A stretch of DNA of 64,000 bases from an uncultured bacterium (GTDB lineage Bacteria > Babelota > Babeliae > Babelales > Babelaceae). Under the pieces are notes generated by a model. That model did no database searches and was not told where the DNA came from. It saw nothing but the letters and a program-made list of their open reading frames with translations. Made by a program: the position numbers and the translations under genes. Of this stretch, positions 26,988 to 45,325 are shown one piece after another (the stretch's first letter is position 1; every line of letters starts with the position of its first letter). The stretch lies in contig CAWFXL010000001.1 in the NCBI GenBank assembly GCA_963819815.1, positions 224,001-288,000 of the forward strand, read 5' to 3'.

Positions 26988-27350
26988 CGTAGGTCCTTTC
27001 CTTTCACCACTGTACATTGAAATGAGTACAAGTGGAAGATCTTTTTTTGCAAGATGTTCCGATAGCGATAAAGATACGTTCGTACAAAAATCGTTCTCTC
27101 TTTCTGTTCCCCATGATTTTTTTTCAAGCAGTAGTTGTGCAGTTTTGCTTTGAACGAACTTTTTTATTAACGTACGATCTTCTTGCTTAACGAAGTTGCA
27201 CTGCATGCTTACAAAAAAATGCAAAACTCTTGCAATTCAATTTTTGAATGTGATACCGTGTGTGAAATTGATGTGGAAGCAAACCAGTTTTCATCAAATG
27301 GTACCCAAGAGTGCATTTTGAAAACACATACTAATAAAAGGAGTAGTTGT

Positions 27351-30300
27351 ATGAAGAAACAGCTTTTATTATCGCTCAGTGCGATATGCTATATGATGAG
27401 TAGTTTTGCGCAGGGTCCCTTGCGTATTTCGCAGATTGATGTGAACCCGGCGATTTGTGCTGCAGGCGGCAGCAGTCCAACGAACACACAGATTCTCGTC
27501 GTTGCCGATGGTGGTGTGCCTTTCGCCGACGGTACGTATCACTATTTTCTGAATGGGTCACCTGTGTTTAATACGAGTGGGGTTTTTAGTGTGCCACTCG
27601 GAACAAGCATTAATATCTCAGTTGCGGACTCATTGACGACCCTATCTGGTATTTCTCTTAATAATCTAGGATCAGATTTTACCTTTTATAGTGTGAGTAT
27701 AGACCCGGTAACTAATTGTCTGGTAAATAATGGGGCCGTTACGGTGGTAACCGAAGGTACATCGAGGCCGGTCTTTACTCTCGCATCTCCTGCCACGGGT
27801 CATGTAAACCAGCCTACTGGCGTGTTTACCGGATTACCTGCAGAAGGCGTCACTATTACCTTTTTTGATGAACTAGGTAAATGTACCAACCCAGCACTTG
27901 GTGGTAACCCAAACTCCGTTACCGTGCCGATTGCTGACTTTCCTGTAGAAATAGTTAACCCATCAGCTACAGGGGCACCTCTAGAAGGCGTAGCACCTGT
28001 ATGCAGTGGCACCAGCGACGGATTCTTAGAATTTACGATCATAGGTGGAAATCCTCCCTATTTAGCATGTCTTACTCCAACTATTGCTGAAGAGACTCAG
28101 CCGAGCGATCCTTCAAGAGTATGCACATTAACTGATTGTGGAACTTGTGGAACAGGTTTTATAGGCGGCCTTTCCAGTGGTACCTACACACTTAGTGTCT
28201 CAGATGCAAATGGGTGTGCAGCTACTAACAACCAATTACCGGTTGTTATTCCATCGGGTAAAATAACTATTGATACTACTACAAGTACTACAACAGTAAC
28301 CCCTTGTTTTAATCAAGCTAACGGTACTTTAGAGGTAAACGTAGATACTATTCAAGCTCCTACAACGGTGACAATCACTGGCCCGGTAACAAGGACTTCA
28401 TCTCCTCAGTCCACAAATCCATTTATATTTGCTAACATTCCGGGCGGCACCTATCAAGTTTCGGCAACAGATGGAACCAATTGTGCGATAGCATCATTAA
28501 CAGTTCCTGTTTCAGGTCCTATCTCATTTACCTATTCTACTATTGATGCTGATAAGGTAGTTATTGCAGCTACGAGAGCTAATGTGGGACAGCCTACATG
28601 TTCAAACAAACAGGGGCTCATAATTATTGATAGCGTATTTCCAAACGACGGTTCTGTGAAGTTTTTTTCATTAGATGGTCATCCATTTGAAGAGTTTCAA
28701 GGTACGTCAACCTTTCAGCCTCCACTTGAAATCTGTGCAGATCCAGGATTTCATACGCTTACGTTAGCATTTGATGATTTGGGAGTATGTACTTCTCAAA
28801 CAGTAACCGTATTTGTCGGCACATCGCAGATTACCTTTACTCCAGTGGTGACAAATGCGCCCTGTTTTAATGGTAGTGCGACGACTGACTCTAATTTTGA
28901 TGGTAATGGAACAATTAAAGTCACAGGTATAAGTGGTGGTACTCCTGATCCTATTACTGACCTTTATTCCTTCTCAATAGGAACAGCAGCCGGATTTATA
29001 ACAACCGATAAGACGTTTACCGTCCCTGCGGGTACCTATGAGGTGACCATAAAAGACCATAACGGGTTTTTCTCAGATCCGCAAATTGTTACGGTTGAGC
29101 CGCAAAGTGAAATTATTCTCTCATTTGATGTATTAACCCCGATTAGCTGTCCAGGCAGTGCTACCGGTGTGATAACCGTGACAGCAACTGGCGGTAGTGG
29201 TTCGTATTTCTTTTCTCTAGATGGGACCCAGGGTACCTTTACTACTACTCCAGGAACCACATTTACTTCTCTACCTACAGCGGCTGGAACTTATTCTCTG
29301 GTTGCAAAGGATGCGGTGAATGGTTGTTTCTCAAGAACCCAACAGCTGGTGTTACAAGATGCGGCTCCAATGCTTATTACATATACGACCTCACAATCTG
29401 CGTGTAATAGTACCACTAGTACAGGAGATATAAGTATATCAAATATTTCGGGCGGCTTACCCCCATATACTGCTATAATTGATGGTCTTAGTTTCACTAC
29501 CAAATTTGGTCCCGGGACCACAAACCCATTTCCGACTGTAATTACTTCAAATCTTGCTCCCGGTTTCCATACGCTTACTATCCAAGATAGTAACAATCCA
29601 GCCTGTTCATCTCCAACGATTGAATTTGAGATACAGCCGGTCGTTATTTCGATAATTAATCCACCTAAGACTACCAACCTGACCTGCTTTAATTCTAATG
29701 ACGGAACTATAACGGTGAATACCGAAGATGTAACTGGTGGTACTTTATTCCCGCCAAATAGTGTTACACCATTTCCGCATTACGAGTATTCTATTGGGCT
29801 TGGAGATTTTATAGATACGGGTAATGCAACAGCGCCGGATTCATTTACAGACCTGCCTGCAGGCATCTATCCTGTTACAGTAATGGATGCTAATGGCTGT
29901 ACTTCAGAGCAAGAATTTGTTGTACTTACTCAACCAGCTCCAGTAACCTTCTCATTTGATGTAACTACCCCAATTCTATGTCCAGGGGGTACCGGTACCG
30001 TAACTATCTTTAACCCTCAGGGTGGTAGTGGAACCGGCTTTCAGTTTTCTATAGATGGTGGTACAGTCTTCGCTTCATTCTCGAACGATCCTGTCACTGG
30101 AAAACCGACAGGAAAGGCGACCCTTGCTGCCGGTACGTACACCCTCGTGGTGACGGACAGTAATGCCTGTCTTTCAACCATCCAAGAGCTTGTATTACAA
30201 GATCCTCAACAAATGGGAGTTGCGTTCACAACAACTCCAGCAACCTGCAAAACTGGTAATGCAGGTACTATAAAAATAACAGGGGTCCTTGATGGAAACG

Positions 30301-31430
30301 TGGGCCTTACTGATAAGACAACACCACCGGCGAACTTTACCTTTACTACGGTTGGGGTAAATCAAACCTTTACCGATAAAGGTATTCCGCCAGTTGTGAT
30401 AAATAGTGCTAACGGCGGTCCGGGGACCGTTCCTCCTGGTACCTATACGATTACCGTAACAGATGCTAATGGTTGCGTATCTCCTTCTGTTACCGCAGAG
30501 GTTGAACAATTTGGGCCACCTATTGTTGATTTTGAAGTAGGTGAAGTGACTGCTAACGCTGGATCTGATGGTTCAATAACGATACATGCGGTGACCAACT
30601 TTGGTCCAGTTGTTGCGCCGGGCAAAATTACATTTAATGTTGGAAACGGGGCGACAACAGATACCGATGTACCTGGTACTGTTTCCATGCTTGATGCTGG
30701 CGTCTATGAAGTGACGGTAACAAACACTACAACAGGATGTCAATCTACCTTTGAAGTGGAAGTAACAGAACCAACACGAACAAGGATTGTCGGAACCATT
30801 TCAGTGGCTGCAACGACGGGCAGTAGCAATGGATGCTTGACGGTTCTTACCGAGTCAACTGCACCACTTCTTTACTCACTTATCTCAATTGAGGGAGAAA
30901 TAGACATAGAGGATCAGATTTCACCGCTCTTCTCAGGCTTGAAAAAAGGCTTCTATACCCTTAAGGTAAAACCAAGGTTTACAGGGACTACTCCTCCGCT
31001 TGGAGACACATTGCGTACTCCGCCTGCCATTGAACCGGATGGACAAGGTAATGAGGCTTTCGGTATTGGGGTTGTCGATGAAGCCTCTGCGATTACGGCA
31101 ACAGCGATAGTAACTCCTATCGATTGCAGTACCGGGCTCGGAGGCTCTATAACGGTAGTTGCCTCTGGTGGAGGTGCACCGTCAACGTGCAATTGTGCAG
31201 TAGGCTTATCGTTCTCGCTCAATGGAGGTGAATTCCAGTCATCTCCCGTGTTTAACAATGTTACTACGACAAATAATATAGTTACGATACAGGATGCTGA
31301 CTGTCATACCACCAGCATAGCTGTTACTGTTCCTATAGTACGGGTACCAAATAACAATCCGATATTTAATTTCTTGGCTAAATATTGCAAAAGTACAGGA
31401 AGTTGTGCTGTTGCTACTACTAAGCCATAA
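27351..31430 (+). CDS. Large exported Thr/Gly/Cys-rich beta-repeat protein (SprB-repeat-like adhesin) with KYC tail
   Basis: Signal peptide after AAGGAG; repeated C..GTITV...GG...Y.FS.DG...L.AGTY.V.V.D.NGC units; ends NNPIFNFLAKYCKSTGSC. Confidence 0.85.
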   Translation: MKKQLLLSLSAICYMMSSFAQGPLRISQIDVNPAICAAGGSSPTNTQILVVADGGVPFADGTYHYFLNGSPVFNTSGVFSVPLGTSINISVADSLTTLSGISLNNLGSDFTFYSVSIDPVTNCLVNNGAVTVVTEGTSRPVFTLASPATGHVNQPTGVFTGLPAEGVTITFFDELGKCTNPALGGNPNSVTVPIADFPVEIVNPSATGAPLEGVAPVCSGTSDGFLEFTIIGGNPPYLACLTPTIAEETQPSDPSRVCTLTDCGTCGTGFIGGLSSGTYTLSVSDANGCAATNNQLPVVIPSGKITIDTTTSTTTVTPCFNQANGTLEVNVDTIQAPTTVTITGPVTRTSSPQSTNPFIFANIPGGTYQVSATDGTNCAIASLTVPVSGPISFTYSTIDADKVVIAATRANVGQPTCSNKQGLIIIDSVFPNDGSVKFFSLDGHPFEEFQGTSTFQPPLEICADPGFHTLTLAFDDLGVCTSQTVTVFVGTSQITFTPVVTNAPCFNGSATTDSNFDGNGTIKVTGISGGTPDPITDLYSFSIGTAAGFITTDKTFTVPAGTYEVTIKDHNGFFSDPQIVTVEPQSEIILSFDVLTPISCPGSATGVITVTATGGSGSYFFSLDGTQGTFTTTPGTTFTSLPTAAGTYSLVAKDAVNGCFSRTQQLVLQDAAPMLITYTTSQSACNSTTSTGDISISNISGGLPPYTAIIDGLSFTTKFGPGTTNPFPTVITSNLAPGFHTLTIQDSNNPACSSPTIEFEIQPVVISIINPPKTTNLTCFNSNDGTITVNTEDVTGGTLFPPNSVTPFPHYEYSIGLGDFIDTGNATAPDSFTDLPAGIYPVTVMDANGCTSEQEFVVLTQPAPVTFSFDVTTPILCPGGTGTVTIFNPQGGSGTGFQFSIDGGTVFASFSNDPVTGKPTGKATLAAGTYTLVVTDSNACLSTIQELVLQDPQQMGVAFTTTPATCKTGNAGTIKITGVLDGNVGLTDKTTPPANFTFTTVGVNQTFTDKGIPPVVINSANGGPGTVPPGTYTITVTDANGCVSPSVTAEVEQFGPPIVDFEVGEVTANAGSDGSITIHAVTNFGPVVAPGKITFNVGNGATTDTDVPGTVSMLDAGVYEVTVTNTTTGCQSTFEVEVTEPTRTRIVGTISVAATTGSSNGCLTVLTESTAPLLYSLISIEGEIDIEDQISPLFSGLKKGFYTLKVKPRFTGTTPPLGDTLRTPPAIEPDGQGNEAFGIGVVDEASAITATAIVTPIDCSTGLGGSITVVASGGGAPSTCNCAVGLSFSLNGGEFQSSPVFNNVTTTNNIVTIQDADCHTTSIAVTVPIVRVPNNNPIFNFLAKYCKSTGSCAVATTKP

Positions 31431-31486: not shown

Positions 31487-31544
31487 CTTGATTAGAATAT
31501 ACTAATGGCATATGCTTAGGGCTACGAATAGTGAGGATACCTCT

Positions 31545-32450
31545 ATGGATCTAACATTTAGTAGTAGTCAACATTTGAAGAACTTTCTTGCATCGCTTGA
31601 TATACGGCAGTCTTCTAAGCTTACGTATCAACGCCAATTAAAGGAGTTCTTTGGCTGGTGTAAGAGGAATACTATTCTTGCTTATGACCGTGAAGCACTG
31701 CTTGCCTATAAGCTTCATCTTTCTAAAGATCGCTCATTAGCAGCCTTTACGATATCGGGATACCTAACTGCTGTACGAAGATATTTTGAATGGCTTGAGG
31801 TCTACCACCAGCAACCTAATGTAGCGCGAGGTATAAAAGGTCCCAGTCGAAAAAGGGGCTTTAAAAAAGATTGCCTTACTATTGATCAAGTTAAAAAGAT
31901 GCTTACCTCTATCGATAGATCTTCATTGACTGGTAAACGTGACTTTGCGATGGTGAATCTGATGGTACGAACTGGATTGCGGACTATTGAGATTGCTCGT
32001 GCTCAGAGGGAAGATATTGCTCAGCAGGGTGGCGAGATTGTTCTCTTTATTCATGGAAAAGGTCGTGATTCAAAAGATGAGCTTGTTTTACTCACCCCTT
32101 TTACCTATGAACCGATTATGGAATATCTTACCGAGCGTGGCAGTATAAAACAGGAAGATCCTCTCTTTGCATCTCATAGCACCAAGAACTTTGGAAAAGC
32201 GCTGACCACACGTTCTGTATCACGAATCTGTAAGCATCATTTAAAGTGTAATAACCTCGATGATGCTCGTCTCACCGCTCATAGCTTGCGCCATACTGCA
32301 GTTACGTTGAGTCTCTTAGCAGGAGCAACACCCCAGGAAGCAAAGCTTATGGCGCGCCATGCTGATATAAACACGACACTTATTTATGCGCATAATATTA
32401 ACCGGATTAAGCAAGCACCAGAAAAGAAGATCGACGAAATTCTTGAGTGA
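31545..32450 (+). CDS. Tyrosine recombinase/integrase (Xer-like)
   Basis: RD.AM..LM.RTGLR..E, GKG..K, HSLRHT, ARHADINTT.IY catalytic set R-K-H-R-H-Y. Confidence 0.93.
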   Translation: MDLTFSSSQHLKNFLASLDIRQSSKLTYQRQLKEFFGWCKRNTILAYDREALLAYKLHLSKDRSLAAFTISGYLTAVRRYFEWLEVYHQQPNVARGIKGPSRKRGFKKDCLTIDQVKKMLTSIDRSSLTGKRDFAMVNLMVRTGLRTIEIARAQREDIAQQGGEIVLFIHGKGRDSKDELVLLTPFTYEPIMEYLTERGSIKQEDPLFASHSTKNFGKALTTRSVSRICKHHLKCNNLDDARLTAHSLRHTAVTLSLLAGATPQEAKLMARHADINTTLIYAHNINRIKQAPEKKIDEILE

Positions 32451-35215: not shown

Positions 35216-36280
35216 ATGCAAATTCAGCTTATTCTCTCTTTTTCAGTATTGTGTGCATTGCTGAGTACTATTTCTGAGCTTCGAGCTGAGTTGACGAAAA
35301 GTCCCATCTATACGACGCAACCACGGTGGACTCAGGAGCTTGATCTTCCCTCCATAGAACAAGAATTACAAGAGGGTGATGTGGCATCTATGAAGCCGAT
35401 GTCGATCGTCCTTAGTGAGATGGGCAAAAAAGTAGATTTTGATAATGAGGTATTCTTGGTGGAGCTCAGGTCTGGTCTCAAGGGTGTCTTCAAGTCAGGA
35501 GATGATCGCTTTGCTGAAGTAGCTGCATATAGAGCCGATCAGTATCTTGGACAGCGCTTGGTCCCGCCGACGGTTTTTAGAACATTAGCGGGAAAAGAGG
35601 GCAGTCTTCAACTGTTCATCGAAACCGATATAGATCTTCTTGAAGATCCTTCACCTTTGTCTTGCGTTTCTGAACGTGAGCTGCTCCAGATGAAACTCTT
35701 CTCGTTTGTCTTTGGCCAATGGGATATTAATCTAGGAAACCGTCTTATTCAGAAGACCGAGGGTCGTTATTACCTTGTACTTATAGATAATGCCGGTATG
35801 TATAATCGACTACAGGTACGTTATGGTGAATATCCCTTTGTCCTCCGAGCATGGCGCTTAAGTGACTATCAGGAGGAGAAGCGCGCATTTCCCTTTGATG
35901 AGCCTCAAGAACTTCGTAATGCTTCCTGTGAAGATGCCAAGAAGCTGTTTAGAGATTTTTTTGAGCCTGAGGAGCTTGAACGCTTTTGCAAGAGAAATTG
36001 TCGGAGACTGAGGTATTGTATTTGGAATAATGCACTCTGGATCCAATATTTTGCTGATAATCCTGAATATACACCATCATACGTATCTGAGTATCCTCAA
36101 TACGATTTACAGGTCTATAAAAATCTTACAAGCGAGCACCTCATAGGCTTTTGGAATGAGCCATATGAGAGTTCCCAGCGTATTCATATTGAAAAGCTCA
36201 TAGCGGATACTCTTGAGCGTCGGGACCAACTTCTTGCAGCGCAGGAAATTCACGAAAAAGCCCATCTGATCATTTCTTAG
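35216..36280 (+). CDS. PI3/PI4-kinase-like (atypical kinase) protein, exported
   Basis: GVFK, EVAAY..D..LG..LVPPTV.R, GSLQLF, GQWDINLGN, LIDN; signal peptide. Confidence 0.75.
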   Translation: MQIQLILSFSVLCALLSTISELRAELTKSPIYTTQPRWTQELDLPSIEQELQEGDVASMKPMSIVLSEMGKKVDFDNEVFLVELRSGLKGVFKSGDDRFAEVAAYRADQYLGQRLVPPTVFRTLAGKEGSLQLFIETDIDLLEDPSPLSCVSERELLQMKLFSFVFGQWDINLGNRLIQKTEGRYYLVLIDNAGMYNRLQVRYGEYPFVLRAWRLSDYQEEKRAFPFDEPQELRNASCEDAKKLFRDFFEPEELERFCKRNCRRLRYCIWNNALWIQYFADNPEYTPSYVSEYPQYDLQVYKNLTSEHLIGFWNEPYESSQRIHIEKLIADTLERRDQLLAAQEIHEKAHLIIS

Positions 36281-36400: not shown

Positions 36401-36799
36401 ATGAACATCAAAAACACCCTAGTGGGTATGTTAATGATTATGTTGAGTACTGCAGCTGTTACACAATGCAGTGAAGGGAAAAAACAAGAGCAACGTGCTG
36501 AAGAAGCTAAAGCCCTGAAGCCAGGTAGAGGCTTAGGTATGGGACCTCTAGGTTTGAGAGCTCGAGCAATGGCTGCTGAAGCTGCCGCCAAAGGTAAAGA
36601 AGTAGAAGAAGAAGCAGTTGAAAAAGGAAAAGTAGCACTGTCAAAAGTAAAACAAGCTCCACCTCTTCCTCCAAAACGTGCAAAAAGAACAGCTGAAGCT
36701 CAAGCAGCTGCTGCAGCAGAAGAACCTGAACATGAAGAATCATGGGGCGAAATGTTAGCTCGTCATGGTGCAAGCGTTAATGAGCCATTTAGGTGCTGA
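36401..36799 (+). CDS. Array gene A1: small exported Ala/Glu/Lys-rich protein with PPLPPKR
   Basis: AAGGAG RBS; MNIKNTL leader; APPLPPKRAKR; ESWGEMLARH. Confidence 0.85.
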   Translation: MNIKNTLVGMLMIMLSTAAVTQCSEGKKQEQRAEEAKALKPGRGLGMGPLGLRARAMAAEAAAKGKEVEEEAVEKGKVALSKVKQAPPLPPKRAKRTAEAQAAAAAEEPEHEESWGEMLARHGASVNEPFRC

Positions 36800-36905
36800 T
36801 TAATCTGACTAACTGGATAGCTAAGTGAAAGTAAAGACTCAATAAGAAGGTCTAGGAATGCTAAAAAATATCCCTATCTTATTGATAACATTAAAGGAGA
36901 ATTCT

Positions 36906-37307
36906 ATGAACATCAAAAATACCCTCGTTGGTATGTTACTCATTATGTTAAGTACTGCAGTTGTTACGCAATGCAGTGAAGGAAAAATGCAAGAGAAAAA
37001 AGCTGAAGAAGCTAAAGCTCTCAAGCCAGGTAGAGGTTTAGGTATGGGACCTCTAGGCTTAAAAGCTAGAGCAATGGCAGCTGAAGCTGCTGCGAAAGAG
37101 GAAGAAGAAGCAGCACCTGAAAAAGGAAAAGTAGCTCCTTCAAAAGTAAAACAAGCTCCACCTCTTCCACCTAAACGTGCAAAAAGAACGGCTGAAGCTC
37201 AAGCGGCTCCTACAGCAGAAGAAGCTGAAGCTGAAGAATCATGGGGCGAAATGATGTCGCGTCATGCTGCAACGTTAGCGAGCCAATTTGGTCATTGGGT
37301 AGATTAA
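36906..37307 (+). CDS. Array gene A2: near-duplicate of A1
   Basis: Same leader, GRGLGMGPLGL, APPLPPKRAKR, ESWGEMMSRH. Confidence 0.85.
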   Translation: MNIKNTLVGMLLIMLSTAVVTQCSEGKMQEKKAEEAKALKPGRGLGMGPLGLKARAMAAEAAAKEEEEAAPEKGKVAPSKVKQAPPLPPKRAKRTAEAQAAPTAEEAEAEESWGEMMSRHAATLASQFGHWVD

Positions 37308-37407
37308 TCTGACCAACTGGACAGATACGTCAAAGTAAAGACTCAATAAGAAGGTCTACGAATGCTAAAAAATATCCCTATCTTATTGATTAATTAAAGG
37401 AGAATGT

Positions 37408-37971
37408 ATGAATATCAAAAATACCCTCATGGGTATGTTACTGATTATGTTGAGCACTGTAGCTCTTACCGAGTGTGGTAAAGGCGGGTGCAAAGGTGGT
37501 GTTTGTGCTCTAAAGCCTAACAAGCAGAAACAAGCCCAAATGATGCAGCGTGAACAAGCAGCAAAAGCCCAAGCACAAGCTCAAGCGCTACAAATGCAGG
37601 CAGCGCGTGCCAAGCAAGCTCAAATAAGGCAGGCAGCGCAAGCTCGTGGTGCTGAAGTTCGCGCAGGTATAAGGGCTAAAGCATTGGCTGCCAAAGAAGC
37701 GATGAAAGGTGCCGCTAAACCTACAGTAATGACTGCTACGCCCAAAGCGTCTGAATTAGCAAAAGCCAAAGGTATGATGGAAGCAAAAGCGGTGACTACC
37801 GAAGAGGCGAAAGCTGCGCTCGCTAGTGAAACTCCACCTCCACTTCCTCCAAAACGTGCAAGAAGAATAGCTGAAGCACCAGCAGCGCAAGAACAACCAG
37901 CTCCGCGTGGAGAAACGTGGGGAGAAATGTTTGCTCGTCATGGTGAAACGTTAATGGGTCATTCTGGGTAA
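37408..37971 (+). CDS. Array gene A3
   Basis: Same leader; CGKGGCKGGVC; Gln/Ala-rich; PPPLPPKRARR; ETWGEMFARH. Confidence 0.85.
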   Translation: MNIKNTLMGMLLIMLSTVALTECGKGGCKGGVCALKPNKQKQAQMMQREQAAKAQAQAQALQMQAARAKQAQIRQAAQARGAEVRAGIRAKALAAKEAMKGAAKPTVMTATPKASELAKAKGMMEAKAVTTEEAKAALASETPPPLPPKRARRIAEAPAAQEQPAPRGETWGEMFARHGETLMGHSG

Positions 37972-38073
37972 GAGTAATCTGACCAAACTGACAATTAAGT
38001 GAAATTAAAGACTCGAGGGTATATGAACTCAAAATACCCTCGTATCTTATTGATCCAGTAAAAGGAGAATGTT

Positions 38074-38574
38074 ATGAACATCAAAAATACCCTCATGGGC
38101 ATGTTGCTGATTATGCTGAGCAGTGCAGCTCTTACCGAATCTAGTCAAGGCAATGCCAGAGGTGCAAGCGCAGCTAGAATCACAGCCACTGCTTTGAGAG
38201 GCGCAACAATACGTGCTCGTACTGGGCAAGTTGCTGCTCCGCAAGAAGCCCAATCAGGGAGTGCCCAAGGTATGAAGGCTACAGCAGTCCCTGCTCAAGC
38301 AAGTGCTTCATCAACCATGGGATCTGAAAAGGCAGCATTAGGCAAGGCCGGAGAACCTATGATGCAAGCAAAAGTAGTAGTGCCAGAAGCTCAACAAGAA
38401 GCGATACCGGTGGCAAAAGAAAAACAGGCTCCACCTCTTCCTCCAAAACGTGCGAGAATGGTACCTGTAGCCCCTGCACCTGTGGTTGAACCACAAGCGG
38501 AACAACCAGCCCCGCGTGAAGACACCTCGGGAAGCTTGTTTGCGCGTCATATGAGTTATTTTTTTGGAGAATAA
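38074..38574 (+). CDS. Array gene A4
   Basis: Same leader; APPLPPKRARM; DTSGSLFARH. Confidence 0.85.
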   Translation: MNIKNTLMGMLLIMLSSAALTESSQGNARGASAARITATALRGATIRARTGQVAAPQEAQSGSAQGMKATAVPAQASASSTMGSEKAALGKAGEPMMQAKVVVPEAQQEAIPVAKEKQAPPLPPKRARMVPVAPAPVVEPQAEQPAPREDTSGSLFARHMSYFFGE

Positions 38575-38627: not shown

Positions 38628-39119
38628 ATGAACATTAAAAATACCCTAGGTATGTTATTAATTATGTTAAGTACTGTTGCTAGTACCCAGTGTGGTAAAG
38701 GCGGCTGTAAAGGCGGAAGTTGTCCGGCAAAGTCTGGTAAAAGCCAACATGCTCTCATGATGCAGCGTGTACAAGCGGCCAGAGCAATACAAGCTCAAGC
38801 GCAAGCTCGACAAATGCAAGTGGGTGGTAGTACCCAAGCTCAAACAAGGCAAGCAGAACCAACACGTGTAGGGGTACGTGCAGGTATGGGTGGTCGTGTA
38901 ATGCAAGTTCAAGCAAGGCCAGCATCAGCATCGACTTCAAGTTCTCGTTCAACCTATGGATCATTGCAATTAAGACCTGCAGGAACGGCGTCTGAACTAG
39001 GCAGAAGTACAAGTTCTAGTGCTACAACAGGAAGTACTCGAGGATCGTTAACTCAATCGAGAGAATCAACGGCATCTGAAGAGTCTGAATCAAGTGGTGC
39101 AGCTGAAAGCAAGGACTAA
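38628..39119 (+). CDS. Array gene A5
   Basis: Same leader; CGKGGCKGGSC as in A3; Ser-rich tail ending ESKD. Confidence 0.85.
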   Translation: MNIKNTLGMLLIMLSTVASTQCGKGGCKGGSCPAKSGKSQHALMMQRVQAARAIQAQAQARQMQVGGSTQAQTRQAEPTRVGVRAGMGGRVMQVQARPASASTSSSRSTYGSLQLRPAGTASELGRSTSSSATTGSTRGSLTQSRESTASEESESSGAAESKD

Positions 39120-39133
39120 GTTAGGAGTTTTTT

Positions 39134-39487
39134 ATGAATGTAAAACATATCTTAGTAGGTTTGTTACTGATCTTGATGAGCACGGAAGCTATTACGGAAT
39201 GTAATGGTGGTCGTTCAAGAAAAGCTCAACAACAGCAACAATGTACCGGAGAAAGCTGCTCATTAAAAGGTGGCAAGAAAGGGAAAGGTTATCGTGGCCG
39301 TCATATGAGACGCCATGGTAAGCGCCATGGAGGCTGGGGTATGAGAGGTCGTGGTACGCAAGGTCAAGGCATGAAAGTCCAAGCCGTGAAAGCCCAAGGC
39401 ACGAAAGCCAAAGCTACTGAGTCTACTGAGTCAGAAGAAGAAGAGTCTTCTACCGGCAACGAAGAAGCAGTTGAAAGTAAAGATTAA
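39134..39487 (+). CDS. Array gene A6
   Basis: Related leader ending ITEC; basic Arg/His/Gly middle; acidic tail ending ESKD. Confidence 0.8.
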   Translation: MNVKHILVGLLLILMSTEAITECNGGRSRKAQQQQQCTGESCSLKGGKKGKGYRGRHMRRHGKRHGGWGMRGRGTQGQGMKVQAVKAQGTKAKATESTESEEEESSTGNEEAVESKD

Positions 39488-39510: not shown

Positions 39511-40005
39511 ATGAATTCAAAATTAGCATTCGTAGGCCTCTTAGCACTTATGCTAGGGGCCACGGAACTTATCGATGCACGTGGTGGCGGTGGTGGACGT
39601 GGCGGTGGTGGACGTGGCGGTGGTGGCGGCGGCCGAGGCGGCGGCGGTATGCATGGTGGTGGAATGCGTGGCCATGGTGGTGTTAGCCATATGGGCGGAC
39701 GTCATGTAGGCGGAGGTCGCCATGTTAGCGGCGGACGTCATGTAGGTGGCGGTCGACATGTTGGCGGCGGACGTCATGTAGATGGTGGTCGTCATGTTGG
39801 CGGAGGTCGCCGTGATGGTGGACGTCACTTAGGCGGTCGTGGTATTCGCAGTGGCTCATACTGGGGCCCGTATCTGTTGGGTGGTCTTCTTGTAGGCATA
39901 CCCCTCCTAAACTATGAGCTAGGATCACCTTATGATGGTTGCTACTATGACTTCGATGGAGACTTAATCTGCCAAATGGGCGATGAATGGTACTATGCGT
40001 CATAG
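39511..40005 (+). CDS. Array gene A7: exported Gly/Arg/His-rich repeat protein
   Basis: Leader; RGGGG repeats; GGRHV(G/S/D) repeats; aromatic/acidic Cys-containing tail. Confidence 0.8.
   Translation: MNSKLAFVGLLALMLGATELIDARGGGGGRGGGGRGGGGGGRGGGGMHGGGMRGHGGVSHMGGRHVGGGRHVSGGRHVGGGRHVGGGRHVDGGRHVGGGRRDGGRHLGGRGIRSGSYWGPYLLGGLLVGIPLLNYELGSPYDGCYYDFDGDLICQMGDEWYYAS
39694..39831 (+). repeat. 18-nt coding tandem repeat (GGRHVG x ~7-8)
   Basis: Units such as ggcggacgtcatgta / ggtcgacatgtt with synonymous variation. Confidence 0.85.
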
Positions 40006-40020
40006 AAATGAATGAGACTT

Positions 40021-40051
40021 AAAGATGGAGGCTTCGGTCTCCATCTTTTTT
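40021..40051 (+). terminator. Rho-independent terminator closing A1-A7
   Basis: AAAGATGGAGGC-TTCG-GTCTCCATCTTT followed by T run. Confidence 0.85.
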
Positions 40052-42915: not shown

Positions 42916-43623
42916 ATGAAGAAACACTTCGTAATATTACTTATCATCTGGTCGGCTTCTATTATTGCACAGGTTGGTCCTCAACCATTGTATATCTCAA
43001 ATATTACGCTTATCCCTTCATGTGGGAATACTGCAACGATATCGGTGACTGCTGCTGGTGGTCAACCAACGCTGGATGGTTTCTATACTTACCAGATAGG
43101 TTCTCCGATAAATGAAATTCGGGTTGCAAAAACGGTCACCTTTACTGCTACCAGTGGCTCAATACCCATTTTGCTTATAAGCGATTCTTCATCGAACGCT
43201 CTTAATATAGATCAAGTAGCTTCTTTTACGCCATCTCAAACCACCTCAGTAAGCATGGATGTCAGTACATTACCGCTTGGTAATGGAAAAGGATGTATCC
43301 TTTTAAGTGTTACTAATCCTGGAGGATTAGCAACCAATCTGGTTACTTTTGGTTTGCGGGCTTTTACTCCTACTGATTTGGAGACTCCTTCCGATATCAA
43401 GCAGGTGAAAGAAGCCCCTTTCACGGCTACATTTCTTTCTTTGCCAAGCGCTTTACTTAATGCTTCTGTTGTTAATATCGATGATGGTTGTGCTGAAGGC
43501 TCCACTTTCAATTTCATATTTCCCTTTCCTCAGGGATTGGGAAATGCTCTGAAAGCGTATATATTTAACAAATATTGTAGCTGCCCTCTCAGTAGTTCTG
43601 CGATATCTGTTCCTATACCTTAG
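42916..43623 (+). CDS. Exported beta-rich protein with KYC tail (short paralog of the 27351 protein)
   Basis: AQVGPQPLYISNI...ISVTAAGGQP..DG.Y.Y; ends GNALKAYIFNKYCSCP. Confidence 0.85.
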   Translation: MKKHFVILLIIWSASIIAQVGPQPLYISNITLIPSCGNTATISVTAAGGQPTLDGFYTYQIGSPINEIRVAKTVTFTATSGSIPILLISDSSSNALNIDQVASFTPSQTTSVSMDVSTLPLGNGKGCILLSVTNPGGLATNLVTFGLRAFTPTDLETPSDIKQVKEAPFTATFLSLPSALLNASVVNIDDGCAEGSTFNFIFPFPQGLGNALKAYIFNKYCSCPLSSSAISVPIP

Positions 43624-44584: not shown

Positions 44585-45325
44585 ATGAAGAAGCTTATCA
44601 TACTACTCGCGATTTATTCAGCATCGATGATTGCTCAGGTTGGTCCTCAGCCATTATATTTCTCAAATATTACCATTACTCCTACACCAGGATCATGCGA
44701 TGTAGCTGTAGGTAAAGCAACTGCAACTATATCGGTGACTGCCGCGGGTGGGCAGCCAGCAGCAGATGGTTCATATATCTATATAGTGAATGGTAATACC
44801 AATCAGGCCATAGTTGCAAAGACTGCTACATTCACCGCTCTTGAAAACGAAGCTGTTAGCGTGATAGTAGTCGATGCAGGGCAGAATACTTTATTCGTAT
44901 TTGGAGGCACACCAGTAGTTATGTTTAAACGAAGTGCGACAACATCGGTGAGCATGGATGTGGTTTCGTTACCTCTTGGTAATAATCCTGGTTGTTTCAG
45001 GTTAACCGTTATTAATCCTGCTGGTAAGGCAACCGGTACGGTAAACTTTACAGCCCAATCCGTAACTCAGAATGAATCATTAACTGAAACTATCCTTGAG
45101 CAAACACTCCAGGCACCGCCCTTTACTGTCACATTTCCTTCTTTGCCGGCTGCATTTATTATTGCCGAGGTTGCGGTTGCAGATGATTGCGGATCGGGCG
45201 GTTCATCCACCTTCAGCTTTAACTTTCCTTTTCCACAAGGATTTGGAAATGCTTTGAATGCATATATATTTAACAAATATTGTAGCTGCCCTCTGAGCAG
45301 TACAGCAATAGTGATACACCCATAA
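44585..45325 (+). CDS. Exported beta-rich protein with KYC tail, paralog of 42916..43623
   Basis: Same N-terminus and upstream AAAGGAAGACGA-ATG; ends GNALNAYIFNKYCSCP. Confidence 0.85.
   Translation: MKKLIILLAIYSASMIAQVGPQPLYFSNITITPTPGSCDVAVGKATATISVTAAGGQPAADGSYIYIVNGNTNQAIVAKTATFTALENEAVSVIVVDAGQNTLFVFGGTPVVMFKRSATTSVSMDVVSLPLGNNPGCFRLTVINPAGKATGTVNFTAQSVTQNESLTETILEQTLQAPPFTVTFPSLPAAFIIAEVAVADDCGSGGSSTFSFNFPFPQGFGNALNAYIFNKYCSCPLSSTAIVIHP

Follow-up and report, generated by a model that had tools for sequence, protein, structure and literature searches.

A fixed PPLPPK motif in tandem, predicted exported paralogues of a Babelota genome as a candidate mimic of host SH3 ligands

The manipulation of protist hosts by Babelota is almost unknown beyond counts of ankyrin proteins, the cultured members of the phylum being protist parasites (accessible parts of PMC6561590, PMC4378268 and PMC4776705). 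Within a window of 64,000 nucleotides (the whole stretch of DNA analysed here), four adjacent genes (A1–A4) each encode the peptide PPLPPKRA, which an earlier note on this DNA had read as a candidate mimic of a host SH3 ligand overlapping a patch like a nuclear localization signal (NLS). The question raised by the locus is whether this short motif is under selection as protein sequence and, if so, what it is kept for. A selected short motif that recurs in unrelated exported proteins would be a cheap handle on a host pathway, and the location of A1–A4 bears on whether the Sec/type II cargo of Babelota gets to the host cytosol; SH3-ligand mimicry as such is already well known, which limits the surprise.

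The A1–A7 gene array and its range

PPLPPKRA was found in frame on the forward strand in all four ORFs, as the earlier note had it (Table 1). The four proteins, which that note calls otherwise divergent, are tandem paralogues that have in common the leader MNIKNTLxGMLLIMLS, the intergenic DNA and a C-terminal tail, with 82% identity between A1 and A2, and the motif was therefore inherited once rather than originating four times independently. An upstream ATG of A2 at 36858 is probably not its start. The leader passes our home-made signal-peptide heuristic and, the motif apart, no other region is as well conserved; a lipoprotein assignment was rejected, since several members have Ser or Ala in place of the Cys that follows the signal. 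Pfam gave no family for any of A1–A8 (among 16 window proteins searched), and the ESM Atlas gave nothing usable for A2. The claim that the proteins are disordered was borne out by composition, the residues A/E/K/Q/P/S/T/G/R making up 79–82% of the mature parts and the motif site itself being disordered on the same basis, and by an AlphaFold model of low overall confidence (10-row alignment, mean pLDDT 56.7), which has helices at 3–36, 50–61 and 115–126 and coil around the motif.

Table 1 Features of the A1–A7 array (window coordinates)
Feature	Position	Strand	Remarks
A1	36401..36799	+	132 aa; predicted signal peptide (Sec), then disordered body, PPLPPK and tail; last codons off the family frame
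A1 PPLPPK	36659..36676	+	residues 87–92
A1 tail WGEMLARH...	36743..36799	+	family end LMSHLGAD here in another frame
A2	36906..37307	+	133 aa; start after AAAGGAG ribosome site
A2 PPLPPK	37158..37175	+	
A2 conserved helical tail WGEMMSRHAATLASQFG	37242..37307	+	helix predicted
A3	37408..37971	+	187 aa; CKGGxC module and Q/A-rich stretch in common with A5
A3 PPLPPK	37837..37854	+	
A3 conserved helical tail WGEMFARHGETLMGHSG	37918..37971	+	helix predicted
A4	38074..38574	+	166 aa; intact motif, tail decayed relative to its orthologues
A4 PPLPPK	38431..38448	+	
A5	38628..39119	+	163 aa; same signal peptide family, without PPLPPK, without tail
A6	39134..39487	+	117 aa; same signal peptide family, without PPLPPK, without tail
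A7	39511..40005	+	Gly/Arg-rich, predicted exported, C-terminal CYYD motif
Terminator-like hairpin	40021..40048	+	end of the A1–A7 run

The family has real matches in two of 261 Babelota genomes, namely the genome of the window (G000) and a relative genome with a syntenic array (G001), and phylum-wide family searches added two and one further weak matches. Four more family proteins (P0002, P0003, P0008 and P0010) appear to lie on one 3826-base contig of a third assembly; no others were found in a search of genome contigs beyond the three assemblies, and among metagenome contigs the G001 contig was the sole match. From this narrow range (two of 261 genomes plus one contig), the family is young and local and its PPLPPK motif has a single origin. 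In seven other members of the genus, the stretch on the murD side is without the A1–A4 family, and six of the seven have there a Gly-rich exported protein like A7, a gene that was probably the ancestral anchor of the array. The array as a whole looks like a product of module shuffling: a CGKGGCKGGxC module directly follows the signal peptide in A3 (37408–37520) and A5 (38628–38730), and P0002 holds a second copy of it.

The A7-like proteins end in a CYYD..G.LVC-type motif (loci L309–L314), the copy at L310 (9218–9811) carrying PERPIR/PERPNR/PERPGR repeats. A XerC-like integrase at 31512–32450 (+) of the window has a close relative within ~9 kb of murD in five of the seven genus members, and the variable set of exported-protein genes between integrase and murD may mark an insertion hotspot. 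Directly upstream of A1 (35216–36280, +) lies a gene with a hydrophobic leader and kinase-like motifs, possibly an exported atypical kinase; its ESM Atlas neighbours score 0.95–0.96 (one cluster with PI3_PI4_kinase in 38% of members), a single-sequence model of it has a low pLDDT (33.5), a paralogue is found at G000:C1:1110084-1111085, and in G001 the orthologous sequence is divided between two frames. SprB-repeat-like exported proteins with the common end motif N..F/YI..KYC are encoded at 27219–31430, 42916–43623 and 44585–45325 of the window.

The C-terminal tail comprises 20 residues, 32–42 residues downstream of PPLPPK, with the consensus E[ST]WxEMxxRH[GA]xxLxxHLG (WxEMxxRH in 11 of the 12 family members), and is predicted to form a moderately amphipathic helix (moment 0.40–0.53, charge 0 or −1). 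The earlier note had described it as an acidic-WGEM element, which fits three of the four window genes, A4 reading DTSGSLFARH instead. Its suggestion of an AIM/LIR-like motif found no backing, since [WFY]xx[LIV] occurs in none of the 12 members and the region is predicted helical and is conserved on through RH and L..HLG. Two other ideas on the tail were dropped, namely a portable tag, as profile matches among ~2,600 proteins were confined to family members, and a GBD C-helix mimic, as the pattern [ILV][VA]xx[LI]xxx[LM], taken from the accessible part of PMC11253601, occurs in none of the 12 tails. In G000 the tails are eroding, the end of A1 being out of frame (36743–36799) and that of A4 decayed and shortened (38527–38574), while they are intact in G001 and PPLPPK is kept; the A1 frame offset and the A4 tail change reflect either real decay or assembly error.

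Protein-level selection on PPLPPK

PPLPPK is invariant in all 12 family members from the three assemblies and occurs in no other ORF of G000 (2945 ORFs). The wider PPLPPKRA is not invariant, position +6 being R in ten members and P in two, and position −1 takes four residues. After residue 26 the family has eight invariant columns, of which PPLPPK makes up six and the R and H of the tail the other two, on a tree of 12 members with a total of ~3.5 substitutions per column. For the other prolines, 66 site comparisons between pairs of members showed 33 changes (the pairs being partly non-independent). The earlier note had raised the case of a motif no better conserved than its flanks in orthologues; in the four G000/G001 orthologue pairs, which that note had not seen, it proved far better conserved: none of the 28 motif codons had an amino-acid change, against 103 among the remaining 494 codons of the mature parts.

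In a parsimony test on the eight genes with DNA (G000 and G001), the seven PPLPPKR codons were compared with seven flanking codons on each side. The motif had no amino-acid and seven synonymous changes, whereas the flanks had 15 (before) and ten (after) amino-acid changes. A run of seven synonymous changes out of seven has p = 2e-4 at 30% synonymous sites, or 3e-3 if two of the changes are counted as one indel, and the synonymous rate of the motif is the same as in the signal peptide, where ten columns took 11 synonymous changes. Since the synonymous rate is normal and amino-acid changes are absent, there is no constraint at the DNA level: A1–A4 are fast-changing except for a fixed PPLPPK, and exactly these six residues are under purifying selection at the protein level. 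Over the seven motif codons, no DNA difference separates A1, A4 and the orthologues of both in G001, which leaves room for local gene conversion at the motif among these copies.

Readings of the motif

In all 12 members PPLPPK fits the class II SH3 consensus PxxPx[KR], with a hydrophobic residue before the second proline, and its conservation stops precisely at the lysine of that class. This much of the proposed host-motif mimicry stood, together with the conserved island against its flanks. Pfam searches of G000 with SH3_1, SH3_3 and SH3_4 gave no match, and any SH3 partner would thus be the host's; in the phylum, SH3_1 matched in one of 261 genomes, in a bacterial membrane protein. The SH3 domains of Amoebozoa read PxxP-plus-basic (Arg) motifs, according to the accessible part of PMC3708727. 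Judging from sequence comparison, we see about an even chance that selection retains PPLPPK for its binding, as a class II ligand, to an SH3 domain of the host, i.e., SH3-ligand mimicry. The signal peptide would then be cleaved after Sec export, the outer membrane would be crossed by way of a type II system or outer-membrane vesicles, and the protein would end up in the host cytosol or on the side of the vacuole that faces it. There PPLPPK would lie as a polyproline II helix in the SH3 groove with its lysine in the acidic pocket, and could recruit or block an adaptor with an SH3 domain from the actin/endocytic machinery (Abp1, myosin I or BAR-SH3 types). The tail helix may bind a second partner or membrane, so that each protein would be an adaptor with two heads, and variation in the N-terminal modules would diversify the copies.

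Delivery across the vacuole membrane is the weak link of SH3-ligand mimicry. In G000 (88% complete), four secretin matches were over the cut-off, and neither FHIPEP (the gate of type III systems) nor VirB4 was matched. Type II systems normally carry folded proteins. The accessible accounts describe Babela as growing in a vacuole with only a type II system (PMC4378268); for Chromulinavorax they give a signal-peptide share of 44% of the proteins and an apparent release of outer-membrane vesicles within the food vacuole (PMC6561590).

Outside the family, the SH3-type pattern was assessed at two levels. In the 402 signal-peptide proteins of G000, PxxPx[KR] occurred 52 times vs 33.3 ± 5.1 in local shuffles, with no enrichment in 797 cytoplasmic proteins (43 vs 45.2). 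After dereplication the ratios were 1.65-fold and 0.89-fold, respectively, the off-register PxxPxx[KR] also reaching 1.6-fold. Four other Babelota genomes, sampled over 400 kb apiece with 479 signal-peptide proteins in all, lacked the enrichment (22 vs 27.6), and class I SH3 motifs were not enriched in G000 or in these four. An exact scan for PP[LF]PP found it followed by AAR/AGR in 65 of 261 genomes and by GAN in 52. Matches were assigned to likely genes where they fell in the longest frame and this had 100 codons or more (this filter and the signal-peptide calls being home-made heuristics), which retained 21 of 77 K/R and 6 of 55 D/E matches, the remainder being mostly shadows of Gly-rich genes. 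Six of the 21 belong to the A1–A4 family and 15 are non-family proteins; with the family counted once and L199 (a probable shadow) and L186 (a fragment) dropped, K/R stood against D/E at 14 vs 6 (p = 0.0065, from only 20 proteins), where 0.40 is the share of K/R to be expected. The signal-peptide heuristic was passed by nine of the 15 non-family K/R proteins and also by four of the six D/E controls, and the non-family K/R proteins had no BLAST match to one another. A third pattern (CGN arginine), which has no paired control, occurred in 57 of 261 genomes, and at the 30 loci examined seven of 31 matches lay in likely genes, five with a signal peptide. Class I/II matches are stacked in L196 (G234:C5), with six as three PPVPTR/PPLPPR pairs, and in L181 (G164:C5), with eight. 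Further unrelated Babelota proteins with stacked SH3-type motifs are L117, L165, L354 and L351. Strict ligand-like motifs that look strong thus recur in unrelated proteins with predicted export, and bulk enrichment is absent.

SH3-ligand mimicry has to be weighed against a role of A1–A4 in the bacterial envelope or the vacuole lumen, where PPLPPK might act as a rigid spacer, mark the protein for sorting or modification, or be read by a bacterial protein, its SH3 likeness being coincidental. This is a serious possibility that we nonetheless consider rather unlikely. Sec export alone leads to the periplasm and no injection system was found in G000; the array adjoins murD and grew beside the Gly-rich exported protein of most genus relatives examined; and general PxxPx[KR] enrichment is lacking in the four other genomes. 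A spacer would, however, allow substitutions, yet all six residues including Leu and Lys are fixed, and as a bacterial binding site or tag the motif is disfavoured by the negative SH3_1, SH3_3 and SH3_4 searches of G000 and by the confinement of motif and tail to the family. The fixed lysine also weighs on the proposal that PPLPPK mimics the ligand of another host proline reader, such as group II WW domains, which strikes us as improbable. The sequence PPLP/PPxPP fits these domains and the first five motif residues are all invariant, but group II WW domains have no need of a lysine at +5, which is as invariant as the prolines, and the same K/R preference is seen in unrelated Babelota proteins.

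Among the readings that turn on the basic residues, nuclear import, advanced in the earlier note, was not sustained. The K[KR]x[KR] patch overlapping the motif is indeed present in all four window genes, but in only nine of the 12 family members; the core is broken in three that keep PPLPPK (KRAT in A1 of G001, KPAR in P0008 and P0010), residues +6 to +9 are variable, and the pattern is not enriched in G000 signal-peptide proteins (122 vs 125.3). The hexapeptide of influenza NS1 likewise overlaps a basic stretch, which has an NLS role there; proteins as small as A1–A4 would need no NLS. That the patch is functional, as an NLS or as a dibasic protease site releasing a C-terminal peptide, therefore has only a very slim chance in our estimation; a furin-type RxxR site, also considered, is present in some members only. 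Also highly improbable is the account by which the motif has no function in the protein and its sharing reflects only recent duplication, gene conversion or a constraint on DNA/RNA (an anti-SD-like CCTCC lies inside it). The DNA identity of A1, A4 and the G001 orthologues over seven codons would agree with it, and part of the A3 difference could be a single indel. It is largely refuted by the seven synonymous and zero amino-acid changes over eight genes at a signal-peptide-like rate, which likewise led us to reject gene conversion as the whole account of the motif; an overlapping antisense ORF and an mRNA structure were discarded because opposite-strand ORFs are not conserved and A1, A3 and A4 have no common fold.

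A bolder extension of SH3-ligand mimicry, which we regard as unlikely, is that Babelota, in which no injection needle is seen, bring disordered proteins exported by Sec into the host cytosol, that SH3-ligand mimicry evolved many times independently among them, and that the array is a recently expanded set of two-headed adaptors linking a host SH3 protein to a second target by way of an undescribed helical motif, WxEMxxRHxxxLxxHLG. If true, this multi-origin reading would amount to a new linear motif and a new translocation route.

Comparison with known SH3-ligand mimics and effectors

In the freely accessible literature covered, we found no report of linear-motif mimicry in Dependentiae/Babelota; the Dependentiae papers found made no mention of SH3, and papers on PPLPPK with SH3 were, by title, mostly on influenza. 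Residues 212–217 of influenza A NS1 are the same hexapeptide, in a disordered region with basic residues after it, and bind, as solved structures show, the N-SH3 domain of Crk/CrkL; in the accessible part of PMC10612106 the hexapeptide counts as a perfect SH3 motif of class II that depends critically on P212, P215 and K217 and is bound by CrkII N-SH3 with a Kd of 6 nM. The conservation boundary in A1–A4 coincides with this SH3-ligand footprint (P, P and K at 0, +3 and +5). A PDB sequence search with a profile of motif and tail returned eight matches (best E 0.053), with NS1 at E ~1 through the hexapeptide alone. Unlike A1–A4, NS1 is viral, serves an animal host and has no homology to them, and the ligand class alone carries over; Crk is an adaptor of the animal lineage, and its specificity is therefore not transferable to a protist host.

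Within the phylum, Babela massiliensis and Chromulinavorax destructans have, like A1–A4, putative effectors with Sec signals (ankyrin, Ulp1-like) in lineage-specific expansions that are presumed host-directed; these are folded domains, for which the accessible parts of the sources name no linear-motif mimicry (PMC6561590, PMC4378268), whereas A1–A4 are disordered. Disordered effectors with short motifs are known from E. coli (EspF(U)/EspF), Chlamydia (TmeA) and Brucella (NpeA), and the LxxHL of the tail recalls EspF(U). A1–A4 differ from these in having no repeats, no GBD C-helix pattern and no type III or type IV system match. NpeA shares with them both a signal peptide and disorder (PMC11253601, accessible part).

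The intracellular bacterium Chlamydia pneumoniae has, in SemC (CPn0678) and SemD (CPn0677), effectors in which proline-rich SH3 ligands (for SNX9) occur together with an amphipathic helix (accessible part of PMC10182996), much as motif and tail do in A1–A4. Profile searches gave members of the A1–A4 family only, and no homology to SemC or SemD was found. SemC and SemD are type III secreted, have an N-terminal membrane-binding helix and have demonstrated binding, whereas A1–A4 have a Sec signal, a single motif and a C-terminal helix without net positive charge. Although homologous to none of the proteins found, A1–A4 appear, from their sequences, to resemble the SH3-ligand mimics of viruses and intracellular bacteria.
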